Below are positions 8,336 through 30,288 of a DNA stretch of 32,000 nt, one piece after another. This DNA is from Microcystis aeruginosa NIES-843 (GTDB lineage Bacteria > Cyanobacteriota > Cyanobacteriia > Cyanobacteriales > Microcystaceae). A model generated the notes under the pieces. It was not told the DNA's origin. It worked only from the letters and a program-made list of their open reading frames with translations, and ran no database searches. Each line of letters starts with the position of its first letter. Within the stretch, counting starts at the first letter, position 1. The stretch is taken from NCBI RefSeq assembly GCF_000010625.1, contig NC_010296.1:1230001-1262000 (forward strand). The letters run 5' to 3'. A program made the translations under genes and the position numbers.

Positions 8336-9219
8336 ATATCGAGAACCTTTTTTTGGTGGGGGTTCTGTATTTTTTGCTGTTAAGCAACTCTTTGATCAAC
8401 AAATAAAAACCTATTGGATTAATGACTTAAATTATGATTTATATTGTTTCTGGCAATGCGCTCAAGAAAATATTGAGTTATTGGTAGCAAAAATAACAGA
8501 AATTAAACAGGAATATGATAATGGACGAGAATTATTTCAAGATTTGACAAGGGAAGATTTAAAGTTAACCGACTTTGAGAAAGCGGTGCGTTTTTTTATT
8601 TTAAATCGGATTACTTTTTCGGGAACAGTGGATTCTGGTGGCTATTCCCAAGCGGCTTTTACCAGTAGATTTACTGATTCATCAATTGCCAGATTAACTC
8701 AAATTGCGCCGTTATTAGCATCGGTCAAAATTACTAACCAAGACTACGAAGAATTATTATTTGCTGAGGGAAAAGAAGTTTTTATCTTCCTCGATCCCCC
8801 CTACTATAGTGCCACAAAATCCCGTTTATACGGCGTAAGAGGGAATTTACATACCAGCTTCGATCATCAACGTTTTGCCGATAATATGCGTCAATGTCAG
8901 GCTAAATGGTTAATTACCTACGATGATTGTCCAGAGATACGAAAACTCTTTGATTTTGCCCATATTATCGAGTGGAATCTTCAGTATGGCATGAATAATT
9001 ATAAACAAGGAGCGGCGGCATCCGGCAGAGAATTAATGATCAAAAATTATTAGTGCCAGATTGTAGTGGAGTATTTATCTACCATAATTTAGCCGGCATT
9101 ATTGATGAAGATTTGGAAAAATCCTCAGCAGCCTTGCTAAGTAGTCATGCAAAATTAATTACCCAAATAAAAAATTAAGAAGTATAATACATAAAAAAAC
9201 GAAGCAGCAGGAAAATACA

Positions 9220-12546: not shown

Positions 12547-13441
12547 CGTTCTCCAGTACGGCCGCCGCGTCGTCGGTCAACACTGCCAACGAACAGTAGA
12601 GGGAGACCAGGTAAGAGGCGATCGCCTTGCGACTAATCCCCATAAATCGCACCGACAAGCCAACTCCCTGTTGACCGGGTAAATTGGGCTGATAGAGACC
12701 GACCACCCCTTGACGGCTTTCTCCTACCCGCAATAACAAAATATTGGTTTTGCCTTGTTCATTCACAGCCAACTTATCGGAAGGAATCAAAGGCACGCCC
12801 CGCCAGGTAATAAACTGAGACCCGAATAATGACACCGTGGCAGGGGGTACACCCCGTCGGGTTGCTTCTCGGCCAAAGGCCGCGATCGCTTTAGGATGGG
12901 CGAGGAAAAATGCCGGTTCTTTCCACACCTTCACCAGCAACTCATCCAAATCGTCCGGCGTGGGCGCACCATTGCGAGGTTGCACTTTCTGGGAATCAAC
13001 AATATTGTTGAGCAATCCGTACTCATGGTTGTTGATCAACTCATTTTCTTGACGTTCCTTCAGGGTTTCGATCGTCAGGCGCAATTGTTCATGGATCTGA
13101 TCGTGGGGACTGCTGTAGAGATCGGACACGCGAGTGTGAACATCCAGTACCGTATTCACCGCACTCAAGAAATACTCCCGGGGGGTCTCTTCGTAATCCA
13201 CAAAGGTTTCGGGCAGCTCCCGCTCATCTCGTTCAGAGCAGGCCACCTCAACCCGGGAGGCATCCCTGACTTTATTGAGACGATAAATCCCCGCTTCAAC
13301 GGGTAGCCAATGCAAGAGGCGAACGAACCACCGGGGTGAAATGGTCAATAACTGAGGAACGGTCTTTGTGGCATTGGCTAACTGCCGAGCGGCAGCATCT
13401 CCCAAAGCCAGTTGCAATTCATGATCTTGGGTATAGGTCAT
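12509..13441 (-). CDS. srpI: family 2A encapsulin shell protein (SrpI-like)
   Basis: 310-aa ORF with no enzyme motifs, containing 'TISPRWFVRLLHWLPVEAGIYRLNKV'. It sits in the srpG-srpH-srpI-desulfurase order known from Synechococcus elongatus. A GGAGGA ribosome-binding site lies 8 nt upstream. The protein is too short to include the cNMP-binding domain of family 2B. Confidence 0.8.
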   Translation of the reverse strand: MTYTQDHELQLALGDAAARQLANATKTVPQLLTISPRWFVRLLHWLPVEAGIYRLNKVRDASRVEVACSERDERELPETFVDYEETPREYFLSAVNTVLDVHTRVSDLYSSPHDQIHEQLRLTIETLKERQENELINNHEYGLLNNIVDSQKVQPRNGAPTPDDLDELLVKVWKEPAFFLAHPKAIAAFGREATRRGVPPATVSLFGSQFITWRGVPLIPSDKLAVNEQGKTNILLLRVGESRQGVVGLYQPNLPGQQGVGLSVRFMGISRKAIASYLVSLYCSLAVLTDDAAAVLENVDVNQYHIYDYD

Positions 13442-13517
13442 TGAGTTAAATCCTCCAATTCAAAAAAAAGTAACAAAGCGACTGTTATGGCCGAACATTC
13501 ACAGTCAGGACAGCCCC

Positions 13518-14477
13518 TCAAATTCCAGAGCCGTCATCAAACATTTCCTGTCGTAGTTGCGCCTGGGAGACAAAACCCCCCGGCGGCACACTGCGGGTTA
13601 ACCAAACATTTCCACCAATGGTTGCGCCCCGACCGATAGTTACCCGACCGAGAATCGTTGCACCTGAGTAAATCACCACATCATCTTCAATAATCGGATG
13701 ACGGGCTTGACCTTTGATTAAACTGCCCGATTCGTCCCGGGGAAAACTTTTCGCCCCGAGCGTGACCGCTTGGTAAAGGCGCACGCGGTCGCCAATCACC
13801 GTGGTTGCCCCAATCACCACCCCCGTCCCATGATCGATAAAGAAGCTATTGCCGATCGAGGCGCCGGGGTGAATGTCAATCCCCGTTAAGGAATGGCCAA
13901 TTTCACTGATAATCCGCGCCAACAGGGGCGAGTCCAAACGATACAGGGCATGGGCAATGCGGTGATAAGTGATTGCCGTTACCCCGGGGTAACAAAACAA
14001 TACTTCATCTAAATTTCTGGCCGCCGGATCACCTCGATAGGCCGCGGTGATATCGGTTTCCAGTAGAGCTTTCAGATGGGGTAATTGGGTGGCAAAGGCT
14101 TGTACCGTCCCTTGGGCGTGTTTCTCAATCTGGTCTGACGACCAGTGCAACTGTGACCCCAGCAACCACTGTTCGCGACAAACCTGGTGATGCAGCAGTT
14201 GCAAGACTTCATTGAGGGTATGACCGATAAAATAGCGGCTGGATGTTTCGCCTAAATCGGGATTGCCAAAGTGATAGGGAAAAAGAACGGCACGCAGTCG
14301 ATCAACAATCCGAAATAAGGCCTCACGGGAGGGCAAGGGGAAATGGCTTCGTGATTGAGACCAACTGTGGAACGACTCGCCACGAGGTTTAGACAATTGA
14401 GTGATAATCTCATCGAGATCCAAGGACAGGGTCGATTGGGAGAGAGCGCTGGAACTGCTCGGATGCTCGCTCGTCAT
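13518..14477 (-). CDS. cysE: serine O-acetyltransferase (long form)
   Basis: Hexapeptide-repeat C-terminus ('[25 protein letters not shown]', '[15 protein letters not shown]'). Its ATG overlaps the cysK stop (ATGA). Confidence 0.9.
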
Positions 14478-15454
14478 GCCACTAACCCTTGCTCATTAAA
14501 TACCCCCTGGAACAGGATGGAACTCAAATACCGTTCTCCGGAATCTGGCAAAATCACGACAATGGTTTTGCCTTGGTGTTCGGGTTGTTGTGCCAAGCGA
14601 GCGGCGACGGCGACGGCGGCACCGCAGGAAATGCCGGAGATAATCCCTTCTTCCTTGGCCAACCGTTGGGCATAAAGAATGGCCTCTTCGTTGGAAACGG
14701 TTTCAATCCCATCCACGAGGGATAAATCCAGAACTTCGGGAACAAACCCCGCCCCAATGCCCTGAATTTTGTGAGGGCCAGACTTTAAGGGCTGACCTGC
14801 CCGGGCTTGGGATAGTATGGGGCTGGCTTCTGGCTCCACTGCTACCGATAAAATCGGTTTTCCCCGGGTCTTTTTGACATAGCGCGAAACTCCCGTAATG
14901 GTTCCGCCCGTTCCCACACCCGACACGAGAATATCGATCGCCCCGTCTGTGTCCTGCCAAATTTCAGGGCCGGTGGTTTCCTCATGGATGCGGGGATTGG
15001 CAGCATTGCGGAACTGTTGCAACAACACATAGCGATCGGGATTAGACGCGGCAATTTCTTCTGCCTTTGCCACTGCTCCGGTCATTCCCTTAGTCCCTTC
15101 TGTTAACACCAGATTGGCTCCATAGGCGAGCAACAGTTTGCGCCGCTCCAAGCTCATGGTTTCAGGCATGGTCAGGGTGAGGGGAATCCCCTTAGCGGCG
15201 GCTACAAAGGCTAGGGCAATGCCTGTATTGCCACTGGTGGGTTCCACCAGTTCTTTGCCCGGCCCCAATAGTCCCCGTTGTTCCGCATCCCAGATCATGG
15301 CCGCACCAATACGACATTTGACCGAATAGGCCGGATTGCGACCTTCAATCTTGGCCAGAACCGTGGCGTGAGTGTTGCCAACGACTCGATTAAGGCGCAC
15401 TAGAGGAGTCCGCCCGATCGACAAACTGTTATCTGCGAACCATTTCTTACTCAC
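14474..15454 (-). CDS. cysK: cysteine synthase A (O-acetylserine sulfhydrylase)
   Basis: It carries '[11 protein letters not shown]', the PLP-lysine region '[11 protein letters not shown]' and '[10 protein letters not shown]'. It has a GTG start with GGAG upstream. Confidence 0.9.
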
Positions 15455-15945: not shown

Positions 15946-17270
15946 TCATCGAAAATTTGGGTCTGAAACCCCGTCGTTCTACGACGGCTTTACTGTTAAA
16001 TATTAGAACATTTACGAAATATATGCTAGAATGTGAGACATGGAAAAAGCCTACTCGTTCCGATTTTACCCCACACCCGAACAAGAGTCGCTATTGCGGC
16101 GCACGTTGGGCTGTGTAAGATTAGTTTACAACAAAGCTCTCCACGAACGAACACAAGCATGGTACGAAAGACAAGAAAGAGTAGGCTACGCTCAAACTTC
16201 TTCAATGCTAACCGATTGGAAAAAGCAAGAAGAATTAGACTTTCTCAATGAAGTAAGCTGTGTACCTTTACAACAAGGGTTAAGACATTTACAAACAGCT
16301 TTTACTAACTTCTTTGCTGGTCGTACTAAGTATCCTAACTTTAAGAAAAAACATCAGGGAGGAAGTGCCGAATTTACCAAATCTGCTTTTAAATTTAAAG
16401 ACAGACAAATCTATTTAGCTAAATGCACAGAACCTTTACCTATTCGATGGTCAAGACAAATACCAGACGGATGTGAACCAAGCACAGTAACAGTCAGATT
16501 ACATCCATCTGGACGTTGGCATATCTCAATAAGATTTGATGACCCAACGATTAAGCCATTACCAGTAACAGATAAAGCCATTGGAATTGACTTAGGAATT
16601 AGTAGCCTTGTCATTACCAGCGATGGTGACAAAGTATCTAATCCTGAGCATTTTAACAAGCATTATCGGAGACTGCGAAGAGCATCTAAAAGTCTTTCTC
16701 GAAAACAGAAAGGGTCAAAAAATCGGGAAAAAGCGAGAATCAAAGTAGCCAAGATTCACGCTCGAATCACCGATAACAGAAAAGACCATTTACACAAGCT
16801 AACCACTCAATTAGTTCGTGAAAACCAAACGATTGTTGTTGAGAATTTAGCCGTCAAGAATATGGTCAAAAACCCGAAATTATCTCAGGCAATATCTGAT
16901 GTAAGCTGGGGAGAAATTACCCGACAATTAGCCTATAAATGCCGTTGGTATGGGAGAAATTACATCGAAATAGATAGATGGTTTCCTAGCTCTAAAAGGT
17001 GTAGTAATTGCGGGTATATTGCCCTTGAAAATGCCGTTAAATGTTCGAGAGTGGGACTGTCCAGACTGTGGGACTCACCATGACCGAGATATTAACGCCA
17101 GTAAAAATATTTTGGCCGCAGGGCTTGCGGTGTCAGTCCGGGTCGCGACTATAAGACCAGAACAGAGTAAATCTGTTAAGGCAGGTGCGAAAAATCCTTC
17201 GGGAAAGAAACAGAAACCTAAATCGTGAGGTTTGGGAATCACCGTCCGTTCACGGCGGTGAGGATGTCAA
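15946..17270 (+). mobile_element. IS200/IS605-family tnpB-only (IS1341-type) element, copy 1
   Basis: The boundaries are taken from where copies 1 and 2 diverge. There is a left-end hairpin at 15971-15987 (CCGTCGT-TCT-ACGACGG) and a right-end hairpin at 17240-17260. No tnpA gene is present. Confidence 0.8.
16040..17228 (+). pseudogene. tnpB: TnpB (RuvC-like RNA-guided nuclease family), with a frame break near 17018-17024
   Basis: RuvC motifs present are 'IGIDLGI', 'VVENL' and '[11 protein letters not shown]', with a zinc finger 'CSNCG...CPDCG'. The ORFs 16040-17083 and 17019-17228 need a +1 shift to join. Confidence 0.85.
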
Positions 17271-17303: not shown

Positions 17304-18725
17304 GGCTCTTCGGGAATTGTTATGCAAATAATTAACTTAAAATAAAATTCGATGAGAGCACCTACGCTCAAAAGTAGCTGAAATTCATACAGGGAAAGAC
17401 TTAAGGCACAAACAGGTTAATACCAAAAGATAGACAATTGAGTTAAGATTTGATATAATAGCCAAAAACGAGATTATTTTACTTATGATACTTGACAAAT
17501 TTTTGAACCTAAAAGGAACCTGTATTCAAGGCTATCTACACCTAGAAAATATCGGTATAGTTTGCCGAATCGAATCGAAAAATCAAAAAGCAACCTGTCC
17601 TCGTTGTGGGTTAGAGAGCGATAAACTCCACCAAAATCATCGACATTTAGTCAAAGATTTACCAATCTCAGGTCAACCAGTATACCTACAAATTAATCGT
17701 CGTCAATTTAAGTGCGATAATTGTCAGAGACCCTTTAGCGAAGAGTTAGATTTTGTCGCCAAGAAACGAACCTATACGAAAAGACTAGCCGCAAATATAC
17801 TCGAACAATTAAAAGAAGGAGATATTTTAAATGTTAGTCGAATAAATGACGTAACGGAAGAAGAGATTCAAAGAATGATAGAGGACATCGCCGAAGAAAT
17901 TACAGAGCCAGACCTATCGGAATTAAAAAGACTAGGAATTGATGAAATCGCTCTAGTCAAAGGACAAAAAAATTACTGTGCGGTTTTAGTAAATTTAGAT
18001 ACGGGAAAACTAATAGCTATTCTAGAGAAGCGAACACAAGAAGAGTTGAGGGAAACGCTTACTGGGTGGGGAAAAGAGGTGTTAGAGCAAATTGAAGAAG
18101 TGAGCATAGACCTTTGGTTGCCCTATAAAAATTTGGTGAAAGAATTGATGCCATCGGCCGAGGTAGTCGCCGATAGATTCCATGTCATGAAACAAATTAA
18201 TCAAGAGTTAGACGAACAGAGAAGAGCAGAAAAAAGAGCCGTAGAAGCGCAGAAAAATAAAAAACAGAAAGCAGAAAAAGAAGCCAAGCTAGAAGTTTTA
18301 AAGCGAAGTAAATATAGCCTGTTAAAAAATGAAGAAGATTTAACGGAACCCCAAAAAATTAAACTAGAAGCTATCAAAGAAAATTTGACAAATTTGAAAA
18401 AGATGCAGGAATTAAAGGAAGAATTTAGAAAGATTTATGAAACCTCAGAGAATCCGACAGAGGGAATGCTATCCATCTCGGAATGGTTGGCAAAATCCTC
18501 CAGTGTTTTTACCAAGAGTTGTCAAACAATCCGAAACTGGTTTGGAGAAATAATTAGTTATTTCGAGCGAAGGACAACGAATGGGGTGGTCGAGGGAATC
18601 AACAATAAACTTAAACTAATAAAACGGAGAGGCTATGGCTTGAGAAACTTTCGGAATTTTTGGGTTAGAAGTATGTTATCTTGGCATCTTGTATGTTGAT
18701 TTAGCATAAAGGGTAACGAAGAGCC
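17304..18725 (+). mobile_element. ISL3-family insertion sequence, copy 2 (1422 bp)
   Basis: Same termini as copy 1. The flanks AGATATGG and AAATATTA are not a duplication. Confidence 0.9.
17485..18699 (+). CDS. ISL3 family transposase
   Basis: 404 aa, differing from the 1942-3156 product at only a handful of residues. Confidence 0.95.
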   Translation: MILDKFLNLKGTCIQGYLHLENIGIVCRIESKNQKATCPRCGLESDKLHQNHRHLVKDLPISGQPVYLQINRRQFKCDNCQRPFSEELDFVAKKRTYTKRLAANILEQLKEGDILNVSRINDVTEEEIQRMIEDIAEEITEPDLSELKRLGIDEIALVKGQKNYCAVLVNLDTGKLIAILEKRTQEELRETLTGWGKEVLEQIEEVSIDLWLPYKNLVKELMPSAEVVADRFHVMKQINQELDEQRRAEKRAVEAQKNKKQKAEKEAKLEVLKRSKYSLLKNEEDLTEPQKIKLEAIKENLTNLKKMQELKEEFRKIYETSENPTEGMLSISEWLAKSSSVFTKSCQTIRNWFGEIISYFERRTTNGVVEGINNKLKLIKRRGYGLRNFRNFWVRSMLSWHLVC

Positions 18726-19011: not shown

Positions 19012-20336
19012 TTGACATCCTCACCGCCGTAAACGGACGGTGATTCCAAAACCTCACGATTTAGGTTTCTGCTTCTTTCCCTTGCGGGGTTCCGCACCTG
19101 CCTTAACAGATTTACTCTGTTCTGGTCTTATGGTCGCTCTACAGACTGACACCGCAAGCCCTGCGGCCAAAATATTTTTACTAGCGTTAATATCTCGGTC
19201 ATGGTGTGTTCCACAGATTGGACAGTCCCACTGTCGAACATTTAACGGCATTTTCAAGGGCAATATACCCGCAATTACTACACCTTTTAGAGCTAGGAAA
19301 CCATCTATCTATTTCGATGTAATTTCTCCCATACCAACGGCATTTATAGGCTAATTGTCGGGTGATTTCTCCCCAGCTTACATCAGATATTGCCTGAGAT
19401 AATTTCGGGTTTTTGACCATATTCTTGACGGCTAAATTCTCAACAACAATCGTTTGGTTTTCACGAACTAATTGAGTGGTTAGCTTGTGTAAATGGTCTT
19501 TTCTGTTATCGGTGATTCGAGCGTGAATCTTGGCTACTTTGATTCTCGCTTTTTCCCGATTTTTTGACCCTTTCTGTTTTCGAGAAAGACTTTTAGATGC
19601 TCTTCGCAGTCTCCGATAATGCTTGTTAAAATGCTCAGGATTAGATACTTTGTCACCATCGCTGGTAATGACAAGGCTACTAATTCCTAAGTCAATTCCA
19701 ATGGCTTTATCTGTTACTGGTAATGGCTTAATCGTTGGGTCATCAAATCTTATTGAGATATGCCAACGTCCAGATGGATGTAATCTGACTGTTACTGTGC
19801 TTGGTTCACAGCTTTCTGGTATTTGTCTTGACCATCGAATAGGTAAAGGTTCTGTGCATTTGGCTAAATAGATTTGTTTGTCTTTGAACTTAAAAGCAGA
19901 TTTAGTAAATTCAGCACTTCCTCCTTGATGTTTTTTCTTAAAGTTAGGATACTTAGTACGACCAGCAAAGAAGTTAGTAAAAGCTGTTTGTAAATGTCTT
20001 AACCCTTGTTGTAAAGGTACACAGCTTACTTCATTGAGAAAGTCTAATTCTTCTTGCTTTTTCCAATCGGTTAGCATTGAAGAAGTTTGAGCGTAGCCTA
20101 CTCTTTCTTGTCTTTCGTACCATGCTTGTGTTCGTTCGTGGAGAGCTTTGTTGTAAACTAATCTTACACAGCCCAACGTGCGCCGCAATAGCGACTCTTG
20201 TTCGGGTGTGGGGTAAAATCGGAACGAGTAGGCTTTTTCCATGTCTCACATTCTAGCATATATTTCGTAAATGTTCTAATATTTAACGGTAAAGCCGTCG
20301 TAGAACGACGGGGTTTCAGACCCAAATTTTCGATGA
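19012..20336 (-). mobile_element. IS200/IS605-family tnpB-only element, copy 2 (inverted relative to copy 1)
   Basis: Collinear with copy 1 along its full length, with the same left-end and right-end hairpins. Confidence 0.8.
19054..20242 (-). pseudogene. tnpB: TnpB, with the same frame break as copy 1
   Basis: ORFs 19199-20242 and 19054-19263 show the same split point ('[12 protein letters not shown]...' versus '[18 protein letters not shown]'). Confidence 0.85.
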
Positions 20337-20643: not shown

Positions 20644-20892
20644 ATGTTTTTTCTTCCTATGCCAGTAAGCGCTGAAGCTCTTAAGCAAGACTTGGATCGA
20701 CTGACTGATAATCAGCTTCAGCAAGTAGCTGATTTTATTGCCTTCTTAAAGTTTCGCAGTCAGCGTCATCAGGCTGTCCTCGATCCAATGCAACTGGCCG
20801 ATCTGTTTGCGGAGTTTGCTAATGAAGATCGCGCCTTTGCTGAAGAAGGTATGAATGACTATGCAGTAATACTCCATCAAGAAGACCAATGA
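20644..20892 (+). CDS. MazE/DUF2281-like antitoxin
   Basis: The small ORF ends in ATGA, overlapping the mazF-like start. It contains 'LTDNQLQQVADFIAFLKFR'. The start is uncertain (ATG 20644 or ATG 20659). Confidence 0.6.
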   Translation: MFFLPMPVSAEALKQDLDRLTDNQLQQVADFIAFLKFRSQRHQAVLDPMQLADLFAEFANEDRAFAEEGMNDYAVILHQEDQ

Positions 20893-21245
20893 TCACTAAT
20901 CCTCTGAAACGGGGTGAAGTCTGGTTAGCCGACCTCAATCCAACTCAAGGTTCTGAAGAAGCGGGCATTCGTCCCGTCATCATTTTCCAGAATGACCTTG
21001 TTTCCCAGTTCTCAACTACGATCATTGCTATTCCGCTCACCACCAACCAACGTCGCGCTGCTTTGCCTATATGCTTACTGATAGAACAAGGTAATGGTGG
21101 ACTCGGCCAAGATTCTGTTGCCCTATGTTTTCAGATGAGAGTGCTGGATAAAACTCGTTTGATCCGCACACTGGGACAACTGAGTCCCGAAATAATTGCC
21201 CAATTGGAAGAAGTGGTTTTGCTAACCTTAGGATACGAGTCCTAA
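20889..21245 (+). CDS. mazF: MazF/PemK-family type II toxin endoribonuclease
   Basis: 'RGEVWLADLNPTQGSEEAGIRPVIIFQND' and 'IIAIPLTT' form the canonical PemK/MazF N-terminal pattern. Confidence 0.85.
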   Translation: MITNPLKRGEVWLADLNPTQGSEEAGIRPVIIFQNDLVSQFSTTIIAIPLTTNQRRAALPICLLIEQGNGGLGQDSVALCFQMRVLDKTRLIRTLGQLSPEIIAQLEEVVLLTLGYES

Positions 21246-21385
21246 ATGTGGAATTAAATGGAATTCTTAAGCAATCCCAAGTTACAGTTGAGGAGTTTAT
21301 TGAGCATCTCTAGTGTCTAAATAGGTCTTGCGGCGGATAGCCTCAACACCCAAACCAAACTGCGGACAGTAAATTAGTCAATAAA

Positions 21386-22195
21386 ATGTCAAAAATTAAA
21401 AGTCCTCTGCGTTATCCAGGGGGGAAATCCCGGGCAATTAAGCAAATTATGCCGCAAATTCCTGTCAATATTAGGGAATATCGAGAACCTTTTTTTTGTG
21501 GGGGTTCTGTATTTTTTGCTGTTAAGCAACTCTTTGGACAACAAATAAAAACCTATTGGATTAATGACTTAAATTATGATTTATATTGTTTCTGGCAATG
21601 CGCTCAAGAAAATATTGAGTTTTTGGTAGCAAAAATAACAGAAATTAAACAGAAATATGATAAGGGACGAGAATTATTTCAAGATTTGACAAGGGAAGAT
21701 TTAAAGTTAACCGACTTTGAGAAAGCGGTGCGTTTTTTTATCTTAAATCGGATGACTTTTTCGGGAACAGTCGATTCCGGGGGTTATTCCCAAGCGGCTT
21801 TTAACAGTAGATTTACTGATTCATCAATTGCCAGATTAACGCAAATTGCGCCGTTATTATCATCGGTAAAAATTACTAACCAAGACTACGAAGAATTATT
21901 ATTTGCTGAGGGAAAAGAAGTTTTTATCTTCCTCGATCCCCCCTACTATAGTGCCACAAAATCCCGTTTATACGGCGTAAGAGGGAATTTACATACCAGC
22001 TTCGATCATCAACGTTTTGCCGATAATATGCGTCAATGTCAGGCTAAATGGTTAATTACCTACGATGATTGTCCAGAGATACGAAAACTCTTTGATTTTG
22101 CCCATATTATCGAGTGGAATCTTCAGTATGGCATGAATAATTATAAACAAGGAGCGGCGGCATCTGGTAGAGAATTAATGATCAAAAATTATTAG
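21386..22195 (+). CDS. Dam-like (D12 class) N6-adenine DNA methyltransferase, intact paralog
   Basis: 269 aa with 'LRYPGGKSR', 'EPFFCGGSVFF' and 'FLDPPYY'. Confidence 0.85.
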   Translation: MSKIKSPLRYPGGKSRAIKQIMPQIPVNIREYREPFFCGGSVFFAVKQLFGQQIKTYWINDLNYDLYCFWQCAQENIEFLVAKITEIKQKYDKGRELFQDLTREDLKLTDFEKAVRFFILNRMTFSGTVDSGGYSQAAFNSRFTDSSIARLTQIAPLLSSVKITNQDYEELLFAEGKEVFIFLDPPYYSATKSRLYGVRGNLHTSFDHQRFADNMRQCQAKWLITYDDCPEIRKLFDFAHIIEWNLQYGMNNYKQGAAASGRELMIKNY

Positions 22196-22266
22196 TGCGA
22201 TGCCGAAGGCACTGGGTAGCAGTAAGCTAATCTTATATGTTGGGTTGACGACTGTACTTCATCCTA

Positions 22267-23136
22267 TTAATTTAACCATTGGTGCAAATCTTCTAAATCC
22301 GAAAAATCCAATAAAGCAAGAGCTAAATTATCCAATTGATTAGGATTTAACTGTTTAATTTTTTGTTCTACCTTTAAAGGAATAGAACCTAGTTTTAAGT
22401 TTAGCTGACGCAAAATTAGGCTTTTTTTAGCCGATAATTCTCCTTCCTCTCTGCCTTCCTCTCTGCCTTCCTCTCTGCCTTCCTCTCTGCCTTCCTCTAA
22501 AGCTTCTTGATAAACCTTAGTTTCTCTTAAATCACTTAAACTAAACATAGCTTCTATCTCCTTACGGTTTAATTTCGGTAATTTATAAATGAGAATTGTC
22601 TCAATTAATTCTAGAATGTCCTGTCTTTTTAAAGACTCCTGAAATTGTTGTCTAACTTGTTGAATCAGTTCTTTTCCTTGGGCTAAGGTGTTTGGTTCCG
22701 ATTCCACAATTAATTGTAACACTTTTACCCCCAGAGAATCCCCCTCATCTAATTGATTCAGATAATAACAGTTAACCCGTCCTGACTCAAAGAATTCTTG
22801 ATAACGAGATTTGGGACTATTTTCAATTCCAGGATGAGGATGAATGATCACCCCTTGCCAATTGTTATTACTCTCACTTTGATGAAAATAGAGAAATATT
22901 TCACTAAAAAAGCGCGAGTAAAACCGTTCATCTTTTTGAAATTGTACCTCAACAAAGTAAATCGGTTCATTAAGGTTATCAGGAAGAAAGACCCCATCTA
23001 AACGAAAAGCGAGTTGTTTAACTTCTAGGGAGGAAAATTGATAATGATTGACGGTTTCAGGGGGAAGATTCAGCAAATCAAAGAAACTTTCAGGAAAAGT
23101 CTGAAAGAGACGATAGAAAATACTGTCCGTTTTCAC
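22267..23136 (-). CDS. Rpn-family PD-(D/E)XK nuclease/putative transposase (DUF2887-type N-terminus, DUF4351-type tail), paralog R1
   Basis: It has 'MKTDSIFYRLFQTFP', a 'LDGVF...YFVEVQFQK' core, an (EEGR)x4 linker and the tail '...LALALLDFSDLEDLHQWLN'. The start is GTG. Confidence 0.8.
   Translation of the reverse strand: MKTDSIFYRLFQTFPESFFDLLNLPPETVNHYQFSSLEVKQLAFRLDGVFLPDNLNEPIYFVEVQFQKDERFYSRFFSEIFLYFHQSESNNNWQGVIIHPHPGIENSPKSRYQEFFESGRVNCYYLNQLDEGDSLGVKVLQLIVESEPNTLAQGKELIQQVRQQFQESLKRQDILELIETILIYKLPKLNRKEIEAMFSLSDLRETKVYQEALEEGREEGREEGREEGREEGELSAKKSLILRQLNLKLGSIPLKVEQKIKQLNPNQLDNLALALLDFSDLEDLHQWLN
22443..22498 (-). repeat. 12-bp tandem repeat CTTCCTCTCTGC x4.7 (encodes the EEGR linker)
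   Basis: This direct tandem repeat lies inside R1. The copy number and Lys/Arg composition differ in every paralog. Confidence 0.9.
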
Positions 23137-23345
23137 TCAATTTTGTCCCTCAATGACTTGTGGTACTTGTTCAATATCTAAGTCTAAAGTTTGGGCAATT
23201 TGTTCTACACTTCACCCTAAAGCCAATAAACGGGGAATAGAGTTTAATTTAGCGGTTAATGCTCCTTCCTCTCTGCCTTCCTCTAAAATATCTTGATAGA
23301 TGACTGATTCTCTCATAATGTCACTCCGAAGGATTTTTTTTATCG
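23137..23345 (-). pseudogene. Rpn-family C-terminal tail fragment F1 (gamma-type tail)
   Basis: It reads 'RETIKKILRSDIMRESVIYQDILEEGREEGALTAKLNSIPRLLALG*SVEQIAQTLDLDIEQVPQVIEGQN' with an in-frame TGA. It has no N-terminal domain and ends immediately before the R1 GTG start. Confidence 0.6.
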
Positions 23346-24207
23346 TCTCTCGATTGTAATTCTTCGATCGCGTCGGGGGATAAATCAGTAAATCGGGCAA
23401 TTTCTGAGATAGGAAAACCAGCAGATAGCATTTTTAGAGCAATTTGTCGGGCTTTTTCTTCTTTACCTTCCTCTTTGCCTTCCTCTCTGCCTTCCTCTAA
23501 AATATCTTGATAGATGACGGATTCTCTCATAATGTCACTCCGAAGGATTTTTTTAATCGTCTCTCGATTTAATACTAACCCAGCGAGAATACTGGTAGCG
23601 GCGGCGAGATTGCTTTGCACCTGTTTTTGAGAGATAAGCTAAACGGCGCTTAACCTGCATGATCCAACAGCTATAACCCTTTTGGAGTCTATATCGGTGA
23701 TCCGAAGTAAAAGCCGTTTAGCTTAGTTTCTAGAGAACGGGACACCTGACTTAACACCTGTTCGGGATCATCGGTATTGCTGAGGACGGCAAAGGGTAAT
23801 AAACCGGGTTGATGGAAAAATTGTGGCGTATTTTCTTCCCAAAGACGGATGACTTGGAAGGAATGAAAGGTTTCCCCCAGACGGAAAGTATTTTCTTGCA
23901 CTAGCGGGGAATCACTACGTCGCAGATAAATTACCACTTGACGCATTGGTTTTTGGGGATGACGACGATAGACGCGAATGCGATAATCGAGCATTCGGAA
24001 AGGAATCTTGGAGTCGGGGTCGGTTTGAAACTCGGTATGGAGAATTAATTGCTCTGACTGCAAAAAAATCAGAGAATCGGCACGAATGGGGTCTAATTGT
24101 CATTCCGTCGGGTCGAGGACGGTTAAGGGGAGGGGAGAACCCAATAACCAAGTGGCTAGATCATCGGAGAAGTTTTCGGCAATAAATTTACAAATATTAT
24201 CAAACAT
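23321..24207 (-). pseudogene. Rpn-family nuclease paralog R2 (MFDNICKF type), with a nonsense codon and a MITE insertion
   Basis: Codon 36 is TGA (24100-24102), where paralog R3/R4 has TTA. An 87-bp MITE sits at 23637-23723. The core motif 'ILHTEFQTD' is present. Confidence 0.8.
23637..23723. mobile_element. 87-bp MITE with a TA duplication (IS630/Tc1-type target)
   Basis: It has 11-bp perfect terminal inverted repeats (AGCTAAACGGC / GCCGTTTAGCT) and is flanked by TA (23635-23636 and 23724-23725). Confidence 0.8.
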
Positions 24208-24391
24208 CGTCAGGGATTACTTTCCGTTTCTCCTAGGATACCCTCGGTCGCCGGTGTTCACATCCTGTATTCGCCGTAACTGTTGCCGAGGAGAATCGTA
24301 GCGCAGAATACATTATAGGCAAAATTCAATTCTACTCATCGACTAAATTGTATGGATATCGGCAAATTTGTCACATCTTCCCAGAAATTTC

Positions 24392-24420
24392 TTGACAATT
24401 GCTAGAGGAAAGGGTATATT
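24392..24420 (+). promoter_or_regulatory. sigma70-type promoter for the NHL-repeat gene
   Basis: TTGACA (24392-24397), a 17-nt spacer, then TATATT (24415-24420), lying 24 nt upstream of ATG 24444. Confidence 0.5.
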
Positions 24421-24443
24421 AGGGGCAGATTTTCTGAAGTTTT

Positions 24444-25472
24444 ATGTCCCTATCTAAAGTTATTAATCATGGGGGGCGGGAGAAGCGTAGCTTATCAAAG
24501 GCTCTGCTGAAATCCTTTTCCCTAGTCACGGCCACTGCGATCGGATGTATTAGTGTCGCCACCAGTGCCACTGCGGCCAGTTTTTCCTTCGCTTTCGGTA
24601 GCCAAGGTACGGGGAACGGTGAGTTCGAAAGCCCCCGTGGTATCGCCGTCAGTAGAAGTGGTGATATCTATGTAGCCGATACGGATAACAATCGGGTACA
24701 GGTATTCAACTCTAGTGGTGTCTTCCAGTCCGCTTTCGGTAGCTTCGGTACGGGGACCGGTCAGTTCCGAAGCCCCTACGGTATCGCCGTCAGTAGAGGT
24801 GGTAATGTCTATGTAGCCGATACGGACAACAATCGGGTACAGGTATTCGACTCTAGTGGTGTCTTCCAGTCCGCTTTCGGTACCAATGGTACGGGGACCG
24901 GTCAGTTCCAAGGCCCCTACGCTATCGCGGTCGGTAGCAGTGGTAATGTCTATGTAGCCGATACGTTCAACAATCGCATACAGGTATTCAACTCCACTGG
25001 TGTCTTCCAGTTCGCTTTTGGTAGCTCCAGCCCCTACGGTATCGCTGTCGGTAGCAGTGGTAATATCTATGTAGCCGATACGTTCAACAATCGCATACAG
25101 GTATTCAACTCCACTGGTGTCTTCCAGTTCGCTTTCGGTAGCCAAGGTTTGGGGAACGGTGAGTTCAATAGCCCCTTCGGTATCGCTGTCGATAGCAGCG
25201 GTTATATCTATGTAACCGATACGTTCAACGATCGCGTACAGGTATTCAACCCCAGTGGTGTCTTCCAGTCCACTTTCGGTAGCTTCGGTACGGGGAACGG
25301 TGAGTTCAGTCTGCCCTACGGTATCGCTGTCGGTAGCCGTGGTAATATCTATGTAGCCGATACGGCCAACAATCGCGTACAGGTATTCAGAACGCCCGAA
25401 CCTTCTAGTATTATCGGATTAGGCATACTAGGGGGGGGTTTAGTGGTGCGTCGCCTCGCTAAACGTGGTTAA
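24444..25472 (+). CDS. six-blade NHL-repeat beta-propeller protein with signal peptide and PEP-CTERM anchor
   Basis: It has six repeats of 'GIAV..SGNIYVADT.NNR(V/I)QVF..SGVFQ.AFG'. The C-terminus 'PEPSSIIGLGILGGGLVVRRLAKRG' is a PEP-CTERM signal. Confidence 0.85.
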   Translation: MSLSKVINHGGREKRSLSKALLKSFSLVTATAIGCISVATSATAASFSFAFGSQGTGNGEFESPRGIAVSRSGDIYVADTDNNRVQVFNSSGVFQSAFGSFGTGTGQFRSPYGIAVSRGGNVYVADTDNNRVQVFDSSGVFQSAFGTNGTGTGQFQGPYAIAVGSSGNVYVADTFNNRIQVFNSTGVFQFAFGSSSPYGIAVGSSGNIYVADTFNNRIQVFNSTGVFQFAFGSQGLGNGEFNSPFGIAVDSSGYIYVTDTFNDRVQVFNPSGVFQSTFGSFGTGNGEFSLPYGIAVGSRGNIYVADTANNRVQVFRTPEPSSIIGLGILGGGLVVRRLAKRG

Positions 25473-25860
25473 TCGGTGTGGAGTGGGGAGACGGTTAAAA
25501 TTTTCCTAATTCCCCACCCTTTGCGGTTAAAAGCTTTAATTGTCCTGCTGCCTTTGTAATTCCTCGATCGCGTCGGGGGATAAATCAGTAAATCGGGCAA
25601 TTTCTGGGATAGGAAAGCCAGCAGATAGCATTTTTAGAGCAATTTGTCGAGCTTTTTCCTCTTTGCCTTCTTGCAATCCTTCTTGTCGTCCTTTTTGTAG
25701 TCCCTTTTCCTCGCCTTCCTCTAAAATATCTTGATAGATGACGGATTCTCTCATAATGTCACTCCGAAGGATTTTTTTAATCGTCTCTCGATTTAATACT
25801 AACCCAGCGAGAATACTGGTGGCGGCGGCGAGATTGCTTTGCACCTGTTTTTGGGAGATA

Positions 25861-26810
25861 TAGTCATTTCAAATAAGTGTGAGACGAGGGAAAAATAAGG
25901 TAAAATCAAGAGAAACGAGCAACCCATACAGAAAAATGTCTTATAGCCTAGACTTGAGAAAAAAAGTAATCGATTATGTAGAGAATGGGGGAAGCATAAC
26001 CAAAGCCGCCGCTCTATTTAATATAGGAAGAGCGACGATATATAGATGGCTAGGTAGGGAAAAACTGGAAGCAACAAAGGTAAAACACCGTCAGAGAAAG
26101 CTGGACTGGAAAGCACTGTCAAAAGATGTCCAAGAAAATCCCGAGGCAAGATTAAGAGACAGAGCCGAGAAATTTGGAGTGAGACCAAGTGCCATTTGCT
26201 ATGCCTTAAAAAACATGAAAGTTACCAGAAAAAAGAAGGAACTTCGTTATAGAGAAAGAAACCGAGAAGAAAGAATGAAATACTACAGAGTGCTGAGAGA
26301 ATTGATTAAAATATATGGAAGTGAAAGCCTTGTATTTATTGATGAGTCAGGGTTTGAAGAATTTCAAGCCTGTTTTTATGCTTGGTCAAAAAAAGGGAAG
26401 AAAGTCTTTGGAGATAGACAAGGAAAACGAGGAAAAAGAGAGAACCTTGTCGCTGGTAGAAGAAAGGGAAAAAAAGACTTTATTGCACCGATGGTATTTA
26501 CGAGAAGCCTGAATGCCGAAGGTTTTGAAGGGTGGTTATCTTTATATTTGTTGCCCTCTCTAACCATAACATCAGTATTAATTATGGATAATGCACCAAT
26601 TCATCGGAAGACAGTCATTAAACAACTGGTAGAGGAAGCAGGTCATCAGGTCGTGTTTTTGCCAAAATACTCTCCTGATTTAAATGATATCGAACATGAT
26701 TTTAGTGCATTAAAGAGGGCAAGAATGTATGCTCCTGTGGGGACACCCCTTGATGAAATTATTCGTACTTATTGTGTCGCCTAGTGTCTCGTTCTTATTT
26801 GAAATAACTA
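25861..26810 (+). mobile_element. IS630-family element no. 3 (950 bp)
   Basis: The terminal repeats are TAGTCATTTCAAATAAG and TAGTTATTTCAAATAAG (reverse complement). The TA duplication is at 25859-25860 and 26811-26812. Confidence 0.85.
25936..26784 (+). CDS. IS630-family transposase
   Basis: It has the HTH 'ITKAAALFNIGRATIYRWL' and the DDE-type motifs 'VFIDESGF', 'LIMDNAPIH' and 'LNDIEHDF'. ATG 25936 is preferred over GTG 25879. Confidence 0.85.
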   Translation: MSYSLDLRKKVIDYVENGGSITKAAALFNIGRATIYRWLGREKLEATKVKHRQRKLDWKALSKDVQENPEARLRDRAEKFGVRPSAICYALKNMKVTRKKKELRYRERNREERMKYYRVLRELIKIYGSESLVFIDESGFEEFQACFYAWSKKGKKVFGDRQGKRGKRENLVAGRRKGKKDFIAPMVFTRSLNAEGFEGWLSLYLLPSLTITSVLIMDNAPIHRKTVIKQLVEEAGHQVVFLPKYSPDLNDIEHDFSALKRARMYAPVGTPLDEIIRTYCVA

Positions 26811-27286
26811 TAGTTTCTAGAGAACGGGATACCTGACTTAACACCTGTTCGGGATCATCGGTATTGCTGAGGACGGCAAAGGGTAATAAACCGGGATGAT
26901 GGAAAAATTGCGGCGTATTTTCTTCCCAAAGACGGATGACTTGAAAAGAATGAAAAGTTTCCCCCAGACGGAAAGTATTTTCTTGTACTAGCGGGGAATC
27001 ACTACGTCGCAGATAAATTACCACTTGACGCATTGGTTTTTGGGGATGACGACGATAGACGCGAATGCGATAATCGAGCATTCGGAAAGGAATCTTGGAG
27101 TCGGGGTCGGTTTGAAATTCAGTATGGAGAATCAATTCCTCTGACTGCAAAAAAATCAGAGAATCGGCGCGAATGGGGTCTAATTGTAATTCCGTCGGGT
27201 CGAGGACGGTTAAGGGGAGGGGAGAACCCAATAACCAAGTGGCTAGATCATCGGAGAAGTTTTCGGCGATAAATTTACAAATATTA

Positions 27287-28283
27287 TCAAACATCGCGAG
27301 CGTTCTGCCTTTGTAATTCCTCGATCGCGTCGGGGGATAAATCGGTAAATTGGGCGATTTCTGGGATAGGAAAGCCAGCAGATAGCATTTTTAGGGCAAT
27401 TTGTCGAGCTTTTTCTTCTTTTCCCTCCTCTTTGCCTTCCTCTTTGCCTTCCTCTAAAGCTTCTTGATAAACCTTAGTTTCTCTTAAATCACTTAAACTA
27501 AACATAGCTTCTATCTCCTTACGGTTTAATTTCGGTAATTTATAAATGAGAATTGTCTCAATTAATTCTAGAATGTCCTCTCTTTTTAAAGACTCCTGAA
27601 ATTGTTGTCTAACTTGTTGAATCAGTTCTTTTCCTTGGGCTAAGGTGTTTGGGGAGCATCTCACTTACGCGATAAGTAATTATACTTAGCCTAAAAGCCA
27701 CTCTTAATCGTGTCTTGGAACGAAATAGAGGCTTTTAAAGACTGCGTACATGGAGAATTAAAACAAGAATTACCCTCGAAAAGCCTATTTTTCCACTAAG
27801 TATTTATGCTCATTGCAAAGGTGAGATGCTCCCGGTGTTTGGTTCCGATTCCACAATTAATTGTAACACTTTTACCCCCAGAGAATCCCCCTCATCTAAT
27901 TGATTCAGATAATAACAGTTAACCCGTCCTGACTCAAAGAATTCTTGATAACGAGATTTGGGACTATTTTCAATTCCAGGATGAGGATGAATGATCACCC
28001 CTTGCCAATTGTTATTACTCTCACTTTGATGAAAATAGAGAAATATTTCACTAAAAAAGCGCGAGTAAAACCGTTCATCTTTTTGAAATTGTACCTCAAC
28101 AAAGTAAATCGGTTCATTAAGGTTATCAGGAAGAAAGACCCCATCTAAACGAAAAGCGAGTTGTTTAACTTCTAGGGAGGAAAATTGATAATGATTGACG
28201 GTTTCTGGGGGAAGATTGAGCAAATCAAAGAAACTTTCAGGAAAAGTCTCAAAGAGACGATAGAAAATACTGTCCGTTTTCAC
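27287..28283 (-). pseudogene. Rpn-family nuclease paralog R5 (R1-type N-terminus, beta-type tail), split by the 182-bp MITE
   Basis: It matches R1 from the start through 'RETKVYQEALEEG'. It then switches to 'KEEGKEEGKEEKARQIALKMLSAGFPIPEIAQFTDLSPDAIEELQRQ'. Its stop overlaps the R3/R4 ATG. Confidence 0.85.
27652..27833 (+). mobile_element. 182-bp MITE, copy C
   Basis: The 8-bp duplication is GGTGTTTG (27644-27651 and 27834-27841). The uninterrupted site is visible in paralog R1 at 22687-22694. Confidence 0.92.
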
Positions 28284-28643
28284 TCAATTTTGTCCCTCAA
28301 TGACTTGTGGTACTTGTTCAATATCTAAGTCTAAAGTTTGGGCAATTTGTTCTACACTTCACCCTAAAGCCAATAAACGGGGAATAGAGTTTAATTTAGC
28401 GGTTAATGCTCCTTCCTCTAAAATATCTTGATAGATGACGGATTCTCTCATAATCTCACTCCGAAGGATGTTTTTAATCGTCTCTCGATTTAATGCTAAC
28501 CTGGCGAGAATACTGGTGGCGGCAGCGAGATTGATTTGCACCTGTTTGTCGAGGACGGTTAAGGAGAGGGGAGTACCCAATAACCAAGTGGCTAGATCAT
28601 CGGAGAAGTTTTCGGCAATAAATTTACAAATATTATCAAACAT
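28284..28643 (-). pseudogene. Rpn-family derivative R6 with the nuclease core deleted (N-terminal 32 aa fused to a gamma-type tail)
   Basis: It reads 'MFDNICKFIAENFSDDLATWLLGTPLSLTVLD|KQVQINLAAATSILA...EEGALTAKLNSIPRLLALG*SVEQIAQ...'. The in-frame TGA is at 28359-28361, and the tail ends at the TGA adjacent to the R5 GTG. Confidence 0.65.
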
Positions 28644-29019
28644 TGCGAGCGTTCTGCCTTTGTAATTACTACCATCCACATCAATAAATTCAAGATTACT
28701 TGCTATCAATTCCTAAACAATTAAGCTAAATAAACCCCCGATCATTAGTAAAAGTCTTTGATTTCATGGTAATCTTTGACCCAAGCTTACGAAATATTAT
28801 ATCACCGATTAAGATAGATCATGATTTAATCTTGTTTTAAGTTCACAAACATAATTAACGGTAGCATGATCTGTCTTAATAATTAACTTTACTTCAGCCA
28901 ATAATTGACCAGATATATAGGTTTCATCTTGAATAGTTTCCTGAAAATTAGGTAAGGATTCCAGACAGGTCAAATATTTATGAAATAGGGGATGTTTGGG
29001 CTACATAAGCAATAGAAAG

Positions 29020-30288
29020 TTACCTTTTCTCTAAAATTAGTAAATATTCGGATTTCATGCCATCAGGATTTTTATTCTTGCGAGATTTGAATAATTGTCT
29101 GGTTTTAATTCTATCCTCAAAGACGCTATCAAAAATAAAGCCATTTTCCTGAAAATATTCCTGTAATATTCGCCAAGTTTCTACTTCCACCCCATCCACT
29201 TTCGGATTACCCACAAAAATGCAAGCTTTCCCAGCTTGTTTTAATTTTCTGGTGGCATTTTCTAAAGCATTGATAGTGTGACAAAAATAGGAATCGAGTA
29301 TTTTATGTAAATTCTCTTTCTCTAAACTCGATCTCACTTGATTTAAGGTTTCGGTTTCGATTAATCTGGTAGCCTGTCGGTAGGGAATTTCTAGCTTAGA
29401 GATTTTTTGCACTTCTTTTTCTGTATATCCTAACCAATATAAATCTAGTTTTGCTGTTCTGATATATTCCTGTGCTTGCAGATAGGGGGGGGAACTAATT
29501 AAACAATCTAACTCTAGATTTTGATCGATCTCAAAAGTGGCACTATCTACTCCCCCATAAAAAAGCACCTGATTACAATTATGCCAAGTGACGGCAATAT
29601 ATTGATTAACGCTGGTTAAAGTTTCAAAACTCATCTCTTTAATCGTTCGTTTTAATTCCTCTTGCCAATCTCTTTGTAATAGTTCTTGTATATCTGATTT
29701 TTTGTATTTCGATTGAAATAATTTAGGTTTGGTATGTTCTGCATAGGAAAACTGTTTACTAACTTTCACTAAAACCGCTTGAATGATCTGGGAATATAAA
29801 TCAGGTTCTAGATTTTTTTGACCTGCCCAAAGTTTCTGTAAAACTGCTAAAATATCCTCTGGATACCAATAGTTTAAATTTGACCACTGAGGGATAAATT
29901 TATCCTTGCTGGCAAAAACTTCTAAGATTTTTTTATCTAACTCTGAGTAACTCAATTGTTCTTGGTGTTCTGTGATCTTAATCGGTATAATATGGTTTAA
30001 AAGATAATTCAGGTCAGTTAAAACTGCATTTCTTTGACAAAGTTTAGCCTCTAAACCCACCGTACCAGAACCAGCAAAAGGATCGATAATCCAATCATCC
30101 TTTTTGGTGTAATTATCAAGACAAAATCTCACCACTTGGGGAATAAATTTGGCAGGATAATAATAGATGCCATGGGTTAGATAACTGGTGCTGGTGATTT
30201 CTGGTACTAAATCTCGAAAAGAAACTAATCGCGGGGTTCCCCGATTAAATTCTTCTAAATTATTAAAATCGAAAAGTTCTAACTGCAT
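29020..30288 (-). CDS. DNA methyltransferase (N4-cytosine/N6-adenine type), with no adjacent restriction gene recognised
   Basis: It has 'YYYPAKFIPQVV', the AdoMet motif 'IIDPFAGSGTVG' and the catalytic motif 'ISSPPY' about 190 aa downstream. Motif I precedes motif IV with a long intervening region. Confidence 0.75.
   Translation of the reverse strand: MQLELFDFNNLEEFNRGTPRLVSFRDLVPEITSTSYLTHGIYYYPAKFIPQVVRFCLDNYTKKDDWIIDPFAGSGTVGLEAKLCQRNAVLTDLNYLLNHIIPIKITEHQEQLSYSELDKKILEVFASKDKFIPQWSNLNYWYPEDILAVLQKLWAGQKNLEPDLYSQIIQAVLVKVSKQFSYAEHTKPKLFQSKYKKSDIQELLQRDWQEELKRTIKEMSFETLTSVNQYIAVTWHNCNQVLFYGGVDSATFEIDQNLELDCLISSPPYLQAQEYIRTAKLDLYWLGYTEKEVQKISKLEIPYRQATRLIETETLNQVRSSLEKENLHKILDSYFCHTINALENATRKLKQAGKACIFVGNPKVDGVEVETWRILQEYFQENGFIFDSVFEDRIKTRQLFKSRKNKNPDGMKSEYLLILEKR

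Follow-up and report, generated by a model that had tools for sequence, protein, structure and literature searches.

Genes of the Rpn family are described as toxin–antitoxin systems: translation from an internal start yields the C-terminal domain as a separate protein, RpnS, which blocks the full-length nuclease RpnL (Zhong et al. 2023, PMC10400941). The proteins contain a long helix with hypervariable four-amino-acid repeats, the number of which varies by strain and sets RpnL/RpnS specificity, and arrays of rpn genes are formed via tandem direct duplication (PMC10400941). Small rpnSs genes, some of them annotated DUF4351, lie downstream of some rpn genes and can fuse to an rpn N-terminal domain, and the same authors speculate that RpnL itself may start such recombination events (PMC10400941). 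In RpnA, the residues D11, D63, E82 and Q84 are essential (Kingston et al. 2017, PMC5350276). This study was concerned with a cluster of Rpn genes at 22267-28709 of a 32-kb stretch of the Microcystis aeruginosa NIES-843 genome, which is called the window throughout. The cluster is probably a partly decayed tandem Rpn array in which the C-terminal tails were swapped by unequal crossing-over in a short repeat tract and which then decayed. The repeat linker, the variable tails, the tandem arrays, the downstream rpnS genes and the fusions of an N-terminal domain to rpnS are already published for Rpn genes, and the locus is an instance of that published system, largely pseudogenised in Microcystis, and not a new kind of system.

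The array was characterized by features that could be observed directly, namely paralogy, breakpoints, insertions, strain differences and family membership. It consists of six related pieces on the minus strand in which two N-terminal types (T1 and T2) are combined with three tails (alpha, beta and gamma). From upstream to downstream the pieces are called R6, R5, R3/R4, R2, F1 and R1 (Table 1). An earlier note on this DNA, the sequence-only reading, had given coordinates, strand, gene order and peptide strings that all proved right when checked against the open reading frame (ORF) listing and by direct reading of the minus strand, and its two N-terminal types and three tails were upheld by sequence reading and by self-BLAST of positions 22000-29100. 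The six related pieces also stand, but they are not six nuclease paralogs as had been proposed, since nuclease-domain sequence is present only in R1, R5, R3/R4 and R2. The 8-nt overlap reported between R5 and R3/R4 was found at 27287-27294 and the TGA-GTG junctions at 23139-23134 and 28286-28281. R1, described as the only intact member, is indeed the sole uninterrupted full-length gene.

The self-BLAST results define the paralogous blocks. Segments 22456-23363 and 27413-28497, which comprise a gamma tail and a T1 N-terminus, are 97% identical apart from an inserted miniature inverted-repeat transposable element (MITE), and segments 23724-24209 and 26811-27296, which represent the T2 N-terminus, are also 97% identical. 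The beta-tail segments at 23354-23636, 25554-25860 and 27311-27469 are 88-91% identical among themselves. In addition, 27199-27321 matches 28548-28670 at 96% identity; this match is the basis for a beta-tail remnant upstream of R6, which marks the truncated edge of the array. The best database relatives come from Microcystis aeruginosa, at 96-97% identity.

Table 1. Coordinates, in the window, of the genes, junction features and inserted elements of the Rpn array.
Feature	Position	Strand	Remarks
R1, T1 nuclease with four REEG repeats and alpha tail	22267..23136	-	289 aa, GTG start; intact
R1 12-nt tandem repeat tract, (REEG)n	22442..22498	-	Tandem Repeats Finder (TRF): 4.8 copies, 100% matches; anchor TTAGAGGAAGG at 22490-22500
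R1 internal in-frame ATG, Met197	22546..22548	-	Candidate RpnS-like start, preceded by AAGGAG-N9
F1, free-standing small rpnS-like ORF	23137..23316	-	T2-type first helix (MRESVIYQDILEEG), one REEG repeat, gamma tail
R2, T2-beta pseudogene	23321..24207	-	Nonsense codon and 87-nt MITE
87-nt MITE-like insertion in R2	23637..23723		11-bp perfect terminal inverted repeats (AGCTAAACGGC), TA duplication
NHL-repeat gene	24444..25472	+	Pfam NHL 4e-53; divergent from R2
R3/R4, single T2-beta gene split by IS630-family element	25536..27294	-	Repaired ORF 268 aa
IS630-family insertion sequence (IS) in R3/R4	25861..26810	+	950 bp; transposase ORF 25879-26784
R5, T1-beta chimera split by MITE	27287..28283	-	Repaired ORF 268 aa; stop overlaps R3/R4 ATG by 8 nt
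R5 chimera breakpoint interval	27413-27469	-	R1 (T1) homology down to 27413; R2 beta homology from 27469
182-nt MITE in R5	27652..27833		8-bp target duplication GGTGTTTG
R6, T2 gene with in-frame deletion of nuclease core, gamma tail	28284..28643	-	Stop abuts R5 GTG
Remnant, 3' end of a further beta tail (..ELQRQNAR)	28644..28670	-	Upstream of R6; sequence reading

The junctions between N-terminal types and tails are all located at one short sequence. The exact 11-mer TTAGAGGAAGG, which encodes L-E-E-G, occurs in all six pieces (6 matches, compared with 0.04 expected from shuffles) and has no match elsewhere in the window. After it, the window pieces have a 12-nt unit (CA[GA]AGAGGAAGG or variants) in 0-4 copies, and TRF recognizes these as period-12 arrays. 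The T1 and T2 sequences diverge directly upstream of this anchor, the tails diverge directly downstream of the repeats, and the only nucleotide identity that T1, T2 and the small rpnS ORFs have in common is the anchor with its 12-nt repeats. In R5, the two homologies overlap by 57 nt, which is exactly the anchor plus the repeats. F1 and R6 likewise change homology class within the tract in the self-BLAST (at 23264-23298 and 28399-28431, respectively). The sequence-only reading had placed every switch point in the EEG[KR] linker; all of them fall on the anchor and repeats, and no breakpoint was found outside the linker. Its assignment of beta tails to R2 and R3/R4, of gamma tails to R6 and F1, and of T1 homology to R1 followed by a beta tail to R5 agrees with the self-BLAST.

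Membership in the Rpn family was assessed with the NCBIfam model TIGR01784 (‘Rpn family recombination-promoting nuclease/putative transposase’; cutoff 52.1 bits). R1 (93.6 bits) and repaired R5 (116.8 bits), which represent T1, and repaired R3/R4 (111.8 bits), which represents T2, all scored above the cutoff, so both N-terminal types are Rpn proteins, as had been proposed. R6 reached just 32.6 bits because its nuclease core is deleted. Among diverse cyanobacterial homologues, the residues D4/D47/E63/Q65 of T1 are invariant in 53 sequences and D3/D44/E59/Q61 of T2 in 50, and this D..D..E-x-Q signature corresponds to D11/D63/E82/Q84 of RpnA (PMC5350276). In R1, Pfam identified DUF2887 in the N-terminal T1 region (1e-76) and DUF4351 in the alpha tail (4e-18). 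The AlphaFold2 model of R1 (predicted local distance difference test, pLDDT, 80.6) has an alpha/beta core, one long helix (207-249) that spans the repeats, and three short helices.

The tails and the sequence just upstream of the repeats point to the RpnS antitoxin. DUF4351, which constitutes the alpha tail, is listed as an RpnS-type domain by Zhong et al. (PMC10400941). The assignment of beta and gamma is based on precomputed annotations, a crystal-structure match and hhalign: close homologues of the beta tail carry the label PF27070 HTH_Rpn_C in precomputed annotation, the beta tail matches the RpnA-S crystal chain PDB 7TH0 over 37 residues (E=1e-3), and gamma is homologous to beta (hhalign probability 96.5%, E=9e-10). 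These sequence comparisons show that the beta tail and the antitoxin domain RpnS are homologous. The internal Met, residue 197 in both alignments, is invariant in the 53 T1 and 50 T2 homologues and is preceded by 7-9 nt by AAGGAG (T1) or GGAG (T2). The first repeat lies 19 aa (T1) or 13 aa (T2) after this Met, and the published range is 8-20 aa (PMC10400941). In addition, free-standing small ORFs of other strains start exactly at the internal Met of both types; a T1-type example, from strain FD4 (CP046973), begins MFSLSDL.... RpnS is thus probably translated separately from the internal Met in these genes.

The locus can be compared on this basis with E. coli RpnA-E and the plasmid-encoded RpnP2 (PMC5350276, PMC10400941). 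They have in common the TIGR01784 family, the D..D..E-x-Q signature and an RpnA-S-homologous C-terminus, and also strain-variable 12-nt repeats in a long helix 13-19 aa after a conserved internal Met, and tandem arrays. Apart from the motifs, however, the cyanobacterial T1 (DUF2887-type) and T2 proteins have little sequence in common with those of E. coli, and three tail classes circulate between two N-terminal subfamilies in one species. F1 and its orthologues of 61-70 aa are like the E. coli rpnSs genes (ypaA/RpnE-Ss, RpnC-Ss), since they start where the internal Met is located and immediately follow a full rpn gene, and R5 and R6 resemble an N-terminal domain joined to a small ORF, as in the published rpnSs fusions. 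However, the small gene of E. coli groups with the tail of the gene that precedes it, whereas the Microcystis small ORF that follows T2-beta combines a T2-type first helix with the gamma tail of the downstream T1-gamma genes.

Two comparison strains, M. aeruginosa FD4 (CP046973, locus L001) and M. viridis NIES-102 (locus L003), were reached through protein matches. The CP046973 unit comprises an NHL gene on the opposite strand, a T2-beta gene ending in ...ELQSRDD, a 63-aa small ORF (MRESVIYQDILEEG...gamma), one to three T1-gamma genes and a T1-alpha gene. Its modules are intact, and the junctions between successive genes from T2-beta to T1-alpha are of zero nt. A separate unit in this strain contains T2-beta, a 70-aa small beta ORF and T2-beta, with the same 8-nt overlap. 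In NIES-102 the order is small gamma (with the same in-frame TGA allele as in the window), T1-alpha, T1-beta and three T2-beta genes; these pieces are 99.3-99.7% identical to those of the window but are arranged differently. The NIES-102 T1-alpha gene has four repeats fewer than R1, its 99.3%-identical orthologue, and the repeat count ranges from 0 to 8 among homologues. The counterpart of R5 in NIES-102 has the same 8-nt overlap, is continuous at the MITE site and is disrupted elsewhere, near its 5' end. Intact versions of every architecture are present in other strains.

These comparisons also bear on the nature of the tails. As the sequence-only reading had held, the tails are genuine alternative C-terminal modules, for the same N-termini carry different tails in other Microcystis strains, and the N- and C-terminal combinations are chimeric, a T1 N-terminus of about 95% identity being found with alpha, beta or gamma tails in other strains. 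T2 proteins across Microcystis have beta or gamma tails. Among cyanobacteria as a whole, T1 matches mostly have a gamma-like or alpha tail and most classifiable T2 matches a beta-like tail. Because T1 is usually found with gamma or alpha and T2 with beta, the T1-beta gene R5 and the T2-gamma gene R6 are chimeric architectures. The R1 and R5 chimeras predate the split of the strains, since each has its own NIES-102 orthologue at 99.3-99.7% identity. The 3' end of the beta tail, moreover, follows its downstream neighbor: it reads ..SRDD before the stop when a small gamma ORF follows, ..RQNA[RH]DV when it overlaps the ATG of the next T2 gene, and ..RQQ[DH]N at the end of an array. Because this variant tracks the downstream gene, it indicates unequal crossing-over or duplication and deletion within a tandem array.

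The steps by which such an array might function and change can be outlined. We infer, by comparison with the published systems, the toxicity and its neutralisation, a role in defence and the enzymology of recombination at this locus. Each complete gene would encode an RpnL in which an N-terminal PD-(D/E)XK DNA endonuclease, the toxin, is followed by a small helical domain at the C-terminus. This domain, when made separately from the internal Met, would be the RpnS antitoxin, binding RpnL via the repeat-bearing long helix. By the evidence from E. coli, the repeat number would decide which RpnS silences which RpnL, and the tail type may add to this. Unequal homologous recombination or slippage in the tract would duplicate or delete the unit ‘tail of gene i plus N-terminus of gene i+1’, and the small ORFs could join in the same exchange. 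The products would be tandem copies, tail swaps (R5 T1-beta, R6 T2-gamma) and altered repeat numbers. Unequal crossover should therefore leave runs of T1-gamma genes that abut the next GTG, chimera junctions inside the repeats, beta 3' ends that track their neighbors, and repeat numbers that change rapidly. Each of these four features is observed.

Decay of the array followed. Five of the six pieces are inactivated. One IS630 element and two MITEs have been inserted, R2 and both gamma tails have each acquired a nonsense codon, and one piece has lost its core. R1 is the only gene of the array that could still function as a toxin–antitoxin gene. The sequence-only reading overlooked that mobile-element insertions, and not recombination, explain the R3/R4 and R5 splits; each of these genes is a single insertion short of intact. 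When the IS630 element and one TA are removed from R3/R4, an intact ORF of 268 aa results that is 97% identical to an intact protein (P0121), and removal of the 182-nt MITE from R5 restores its 268-aa ORF. In R2, codon 36 (24102-24100) is a nonsense codon (TTA>TGA). This gene also lacks the normal ...SRDD stop, and its ORF therefore runs on for 6 further codons; intact orthologues end in ...ELQSRDD.

The two gamma-tailed pieces have an in-frame stop in common. F1 contains an in-frame TGA at 23214-23212 in place of a Leu in intact homologues, and its stop abuts the GTG of R1. Intact 63-aa orthologues occupy the same position in CP046973, and because that strain has the same ORF there, F1 is a canonical small ORF of the unit and not a fragment of a nuclease paralog. 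The possibility that F1 was derived from a decayed chimeric nuclease gene was ruled out by the same orthologues. In R6, residue 32 is joined in frame to KQVQ..., the entire nuclease core is gone, there are zero repeats after the LEEG anchor, and the gamma tail has an in-frame TGA at 28361-28359. Both gamma tails thus read LLALG-TGA-SVEQ, compared with LGLSVEQ, with Leu, in intact homologues. An uninterrupted 119-aa version of R6 (P0241; 11 member sequences) that is 99% identical is present in other samples.

Two side observations concern these forms. In-frame deletions of the core only, which keep the N-terminal 32-55 residues and the RpnS-type C-terminus, have occurred independently in Microcystis (R6/P0241) and Nostoc (P0265), and such derivatives may be antitoxin-only. 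The gamma allele truncated by TGA after LLALG is common to both window copies, NIES-102 (L003 5864-6025) and a database cluster (P0266) on 17 contigs, and is therefore widespread, although other strains have Leu at the position. Cells may tolerate this allele, or its product may even work as an RpnS that consists of helix 1 only.

The inserted elements were identified by their ends and their empty sites. The IS630 transposase contains the Pfam domains HTH_Tnp_IS630 (1.5e-45) and DDE_3 (1e-29); the terminal inverted repeats of the element are 27 nt as reported, with the flanking TA included, and the TA is duplicated at 25859-60 and 26811-12. The 182-nt MITE has two more copies, at 5703-5884 and 9397-9578, and was absent from about 270 kb of other Microcystis loci examined. 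The 100% identity of its three copies implies that it transposed very recently. Its terminal inverted repeats, ~45 nt in length, are imperfect (73% complementary), and its target duplications are 8 bp. NIES-102 is uninterrupted at the position of the MITE (GGAACCAAACACCTTAGCC) and at the position of the IS630 and 87-nt elements (CTAGAAACTATCTCCC), which are therefore empty sites. No second copy of the 87-nt element was found in the window or the other sequences examined; its mobile nature follows from its terminal inverted repeats, TA duplication and empty sites. The two unrelated TA-duplicating elements (87-nt, 23635-23725; IS630, 25859-26812) are inserted at the identical TA of CTAGAAAC-TA-TCTC in paralogous T2 genes, which suggests that this TA is an insertion hotspot in T2 genes.

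Several other explanations of the locus were considered. The sequence-only reading had interpreted it as a recombining cassette array, and of that interpretation the Rpn genes, the chimeric tails and the recombination at the repeat are retained while the dedicated cassette system is not. Programmed cassette switching, of the type seen in shufflons, phase-variable hsdS, DGR loci or antigenic variation, would have R1 exchange its tail with silent donors at the repeat at high frequency. Such a process would account for three tails on two N-types with every junction in one short repeated tract, and for near-identical pieces (~99%) arranged differently between strains; the speculation of Zhong et al. 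that RpnL may initiate such recombination events is also in its favor. The locus would resemble the type I restriction specificity subunit of EcoR124I/II, with its TAEL repeats, and hsdS in that the copy number of a 12-nt, four-amino-acid helix repeat changes specificity and paralogs exchange modular specificity domains. However, hsdS shufflons have inverted repeats and a dedicated recombinase, whereas all of the Microcystis modules are direct repeats, the sole inverted repeats being IS and MITE ends, and no invertase, tyrosine or serine recombinase or reverse transcriptase was found at or beside the locus. The only transposases in the 32-kb window are of the IS630, ISL3 and IS605 types. What would be silent cassettes are represented in CP046973 and NIES-102 by complete genes or conserved small ORFs, and those of the window are inactivated by insertions and nonsense mutations, and R1 and R5 each have a NIES-102 orthologue of their own, so the chimeras are older than the strain split. 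Cassette switching is thus improbable. A further parallel is provided by polymorphic toxins (CdiA-CT, Rhs), which also join a conserved N-terminus to alternative C-termini and have downstream orphan modules recombinable via a short junction motif. In those proteins the variable C-terminus is the toxin and immunity is provided by a separate gene, while at this locus toxicity would reside in the N-terminus and the variable C-terminus would also serve as the antitoxin.

The Rpn genes might instead be regarded as transposases of an ISNCY-like or ‘transposase_31’ element that inserted repeatedly at this site. The historical annotation ‘putative transposase’ agrees with this, the region is very rich in IS elements, and synteny anchored on the neighboring Dam methyltransferase gene found no Rpn array beside Dam in 12 Microcystis loci (L004-L015), each from another genome, homology stopping at ~22198-22255. 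Yet neither terminal inverted repeats nor target duplications were found around any Rpn unit, successive genes are arranged head to tail with abutting or overlapping ends, and the breakpoints of the units lie inside coding sequence and not at element ends. The published analysis also rejected this explanation (PMC10400941), which is extremely unlikely here. The locus could also be mere pseudogene debris that lacks functional modularity, left by a selfish or junk family that duplicated and decayed neutrally and in which the tails have no antitoxin role. In agreement with this, five of the six pieces are broken and many database relatives are truncated gene calls. However, about 100 diverse homologues from cyanobacteria show no variation in the catalytic residues or the internal Met, every architecture has intact versions in other strains, and the antitoxin to which the beta tail is homologous has been validated experimentally. 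Neutral debris is for these reasons a poor explanation and very unlikely to be correct.

A tandem Rpn array reshaped by unequal crossing-over is therefore the preferred explanation, and the following points weigh against it. The breakpoints also fit a domain boundary, and selection for functional chimeras, as opposed to a preference in recombination, could contribute. A profile comparison by hhalign detected no similarity of the alpha tail to either beta or gamma (probability 3%). Foldseek comparison of the R1 model with the PDB yielded nothing at E<=1e-3, and the sub-threshold matches were mostly PD-(D/E)XK nucleases (best E=0.03; EndoMS at probability 1.0, E=0.05). We infer internal initiation from Met conservation, the Shine-Dalgarno-like AAGGAG and GGAG motifs and the free-standing ORFs; a promoter and terminator scan did not rise above shuffled controls, and internal promoters are unsupported by it. 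The RpnL/RpnS mechanism proposed for the cyanobacterial proteins is carried over from E. coli and C. difficile homologues. Finally, a PADLOC scan hit just the methyltransferases and a weak NHL/PD-T4-6 match; PADLOC 2023 has no Rpn model, and the defence assignment was not independently confirmed by it.

A bolder proposal is that TTAGAGGAAGG and the 12-nt tract constitute a preferred recombination hotspot, possibly stimulated by Rpn itself, at which the two divergent Rpn subfamilies and the small rpnS ORFs continually trade modules for antitoxin function and specificity. The array would then be a generator of diverse toxin–antitoxin specificities, and the core-deleted mini-Rpn genes (R6/P0241, P0265) would be kept as antitoxin-only decoys. 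This is conceivable but rather doubtful.

The NHL gene lies within the array. It has a putative PEP-CTERM-like C-terminal tail (PEPSS..., a hydrophobic stretch and RRLAKRG) and internal repeats of its own of 141 nt, and its sole match in a defence database is a weak, repeat-level one to PD-T4-6 (PADLOC). An NHL gene is located divergently upstream of a T2 gene both in the window and in every Rpn unit of CP046973 (L001 6851-7888, 10976-12064 and 16764-17246), and it appears, from this arrangement, to have been co-duplicated with the Rpn units in that strain.

The rest of the window provides the context of the array. The array is flanked by a PemK/MazF toxin gene and two DNA methyltransferases, a context suggestive of defence. 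The D12-class Dam methyltransferase gene (21374-22255) is 92-97% identical in nucleotide sequence (blastn) in 12 other Microcystis genomes, with a different downstream flank in each, and synteny of the PemK/MazF gene (20889-21245), upstream of which lies a putative antitoxin gene, is confined to some of these 12. Together these point to a rearrangement-prone island around the Dam gene. A second Dam-like methyltransferase is at 8298-9053. An ISL3 transposase gene (17485-18699) is located between two near-identical TnpB/OrfB_IS605 genes in inverted orientation (16040-17083 on the plus strand and 19199-20242 on the minus strand). A second ISL3 copy is at 1942-3156, and another IS630-type DDE_3 gene is at 9551-10408. 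A minus-strand block at 10825-15454 has 52-55% G+C in a genome of ~40% G+C and contains a set of four genes. One product is a class-V aminotransferase of the cysteine-desulfurase type, 573 aa in length, with a long extension at its N-terminus; the others are an SrpI-like encapsulin shell protein of type 2A (7e-108), a hexapeptide transferase and a pyridoxal-phosphate-dependent enzyme (Pfam PALP family). The set looks like a SrpI encapsulin sulfur-metabolism operon, and its composition suggests that it was horizontally acquired. An Rfam scan of the window gave zero matches.

The locus extends the ‘antitoxin within a toxin’ design of RpnL/RpnS to bloom-forming cyanobacteria, in which such genes are abundant but unstudied. 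R1, repaired R5, repaired R3/R4 and the small gamma ORF provide material for tests of antitoxin specificity. The array is also a natural example of how a 12-nt tract can multiply genes in tandem, alter the number of repeats and move whole tails from one subfamily to another, a mechanism that was left open by Zhong et al.

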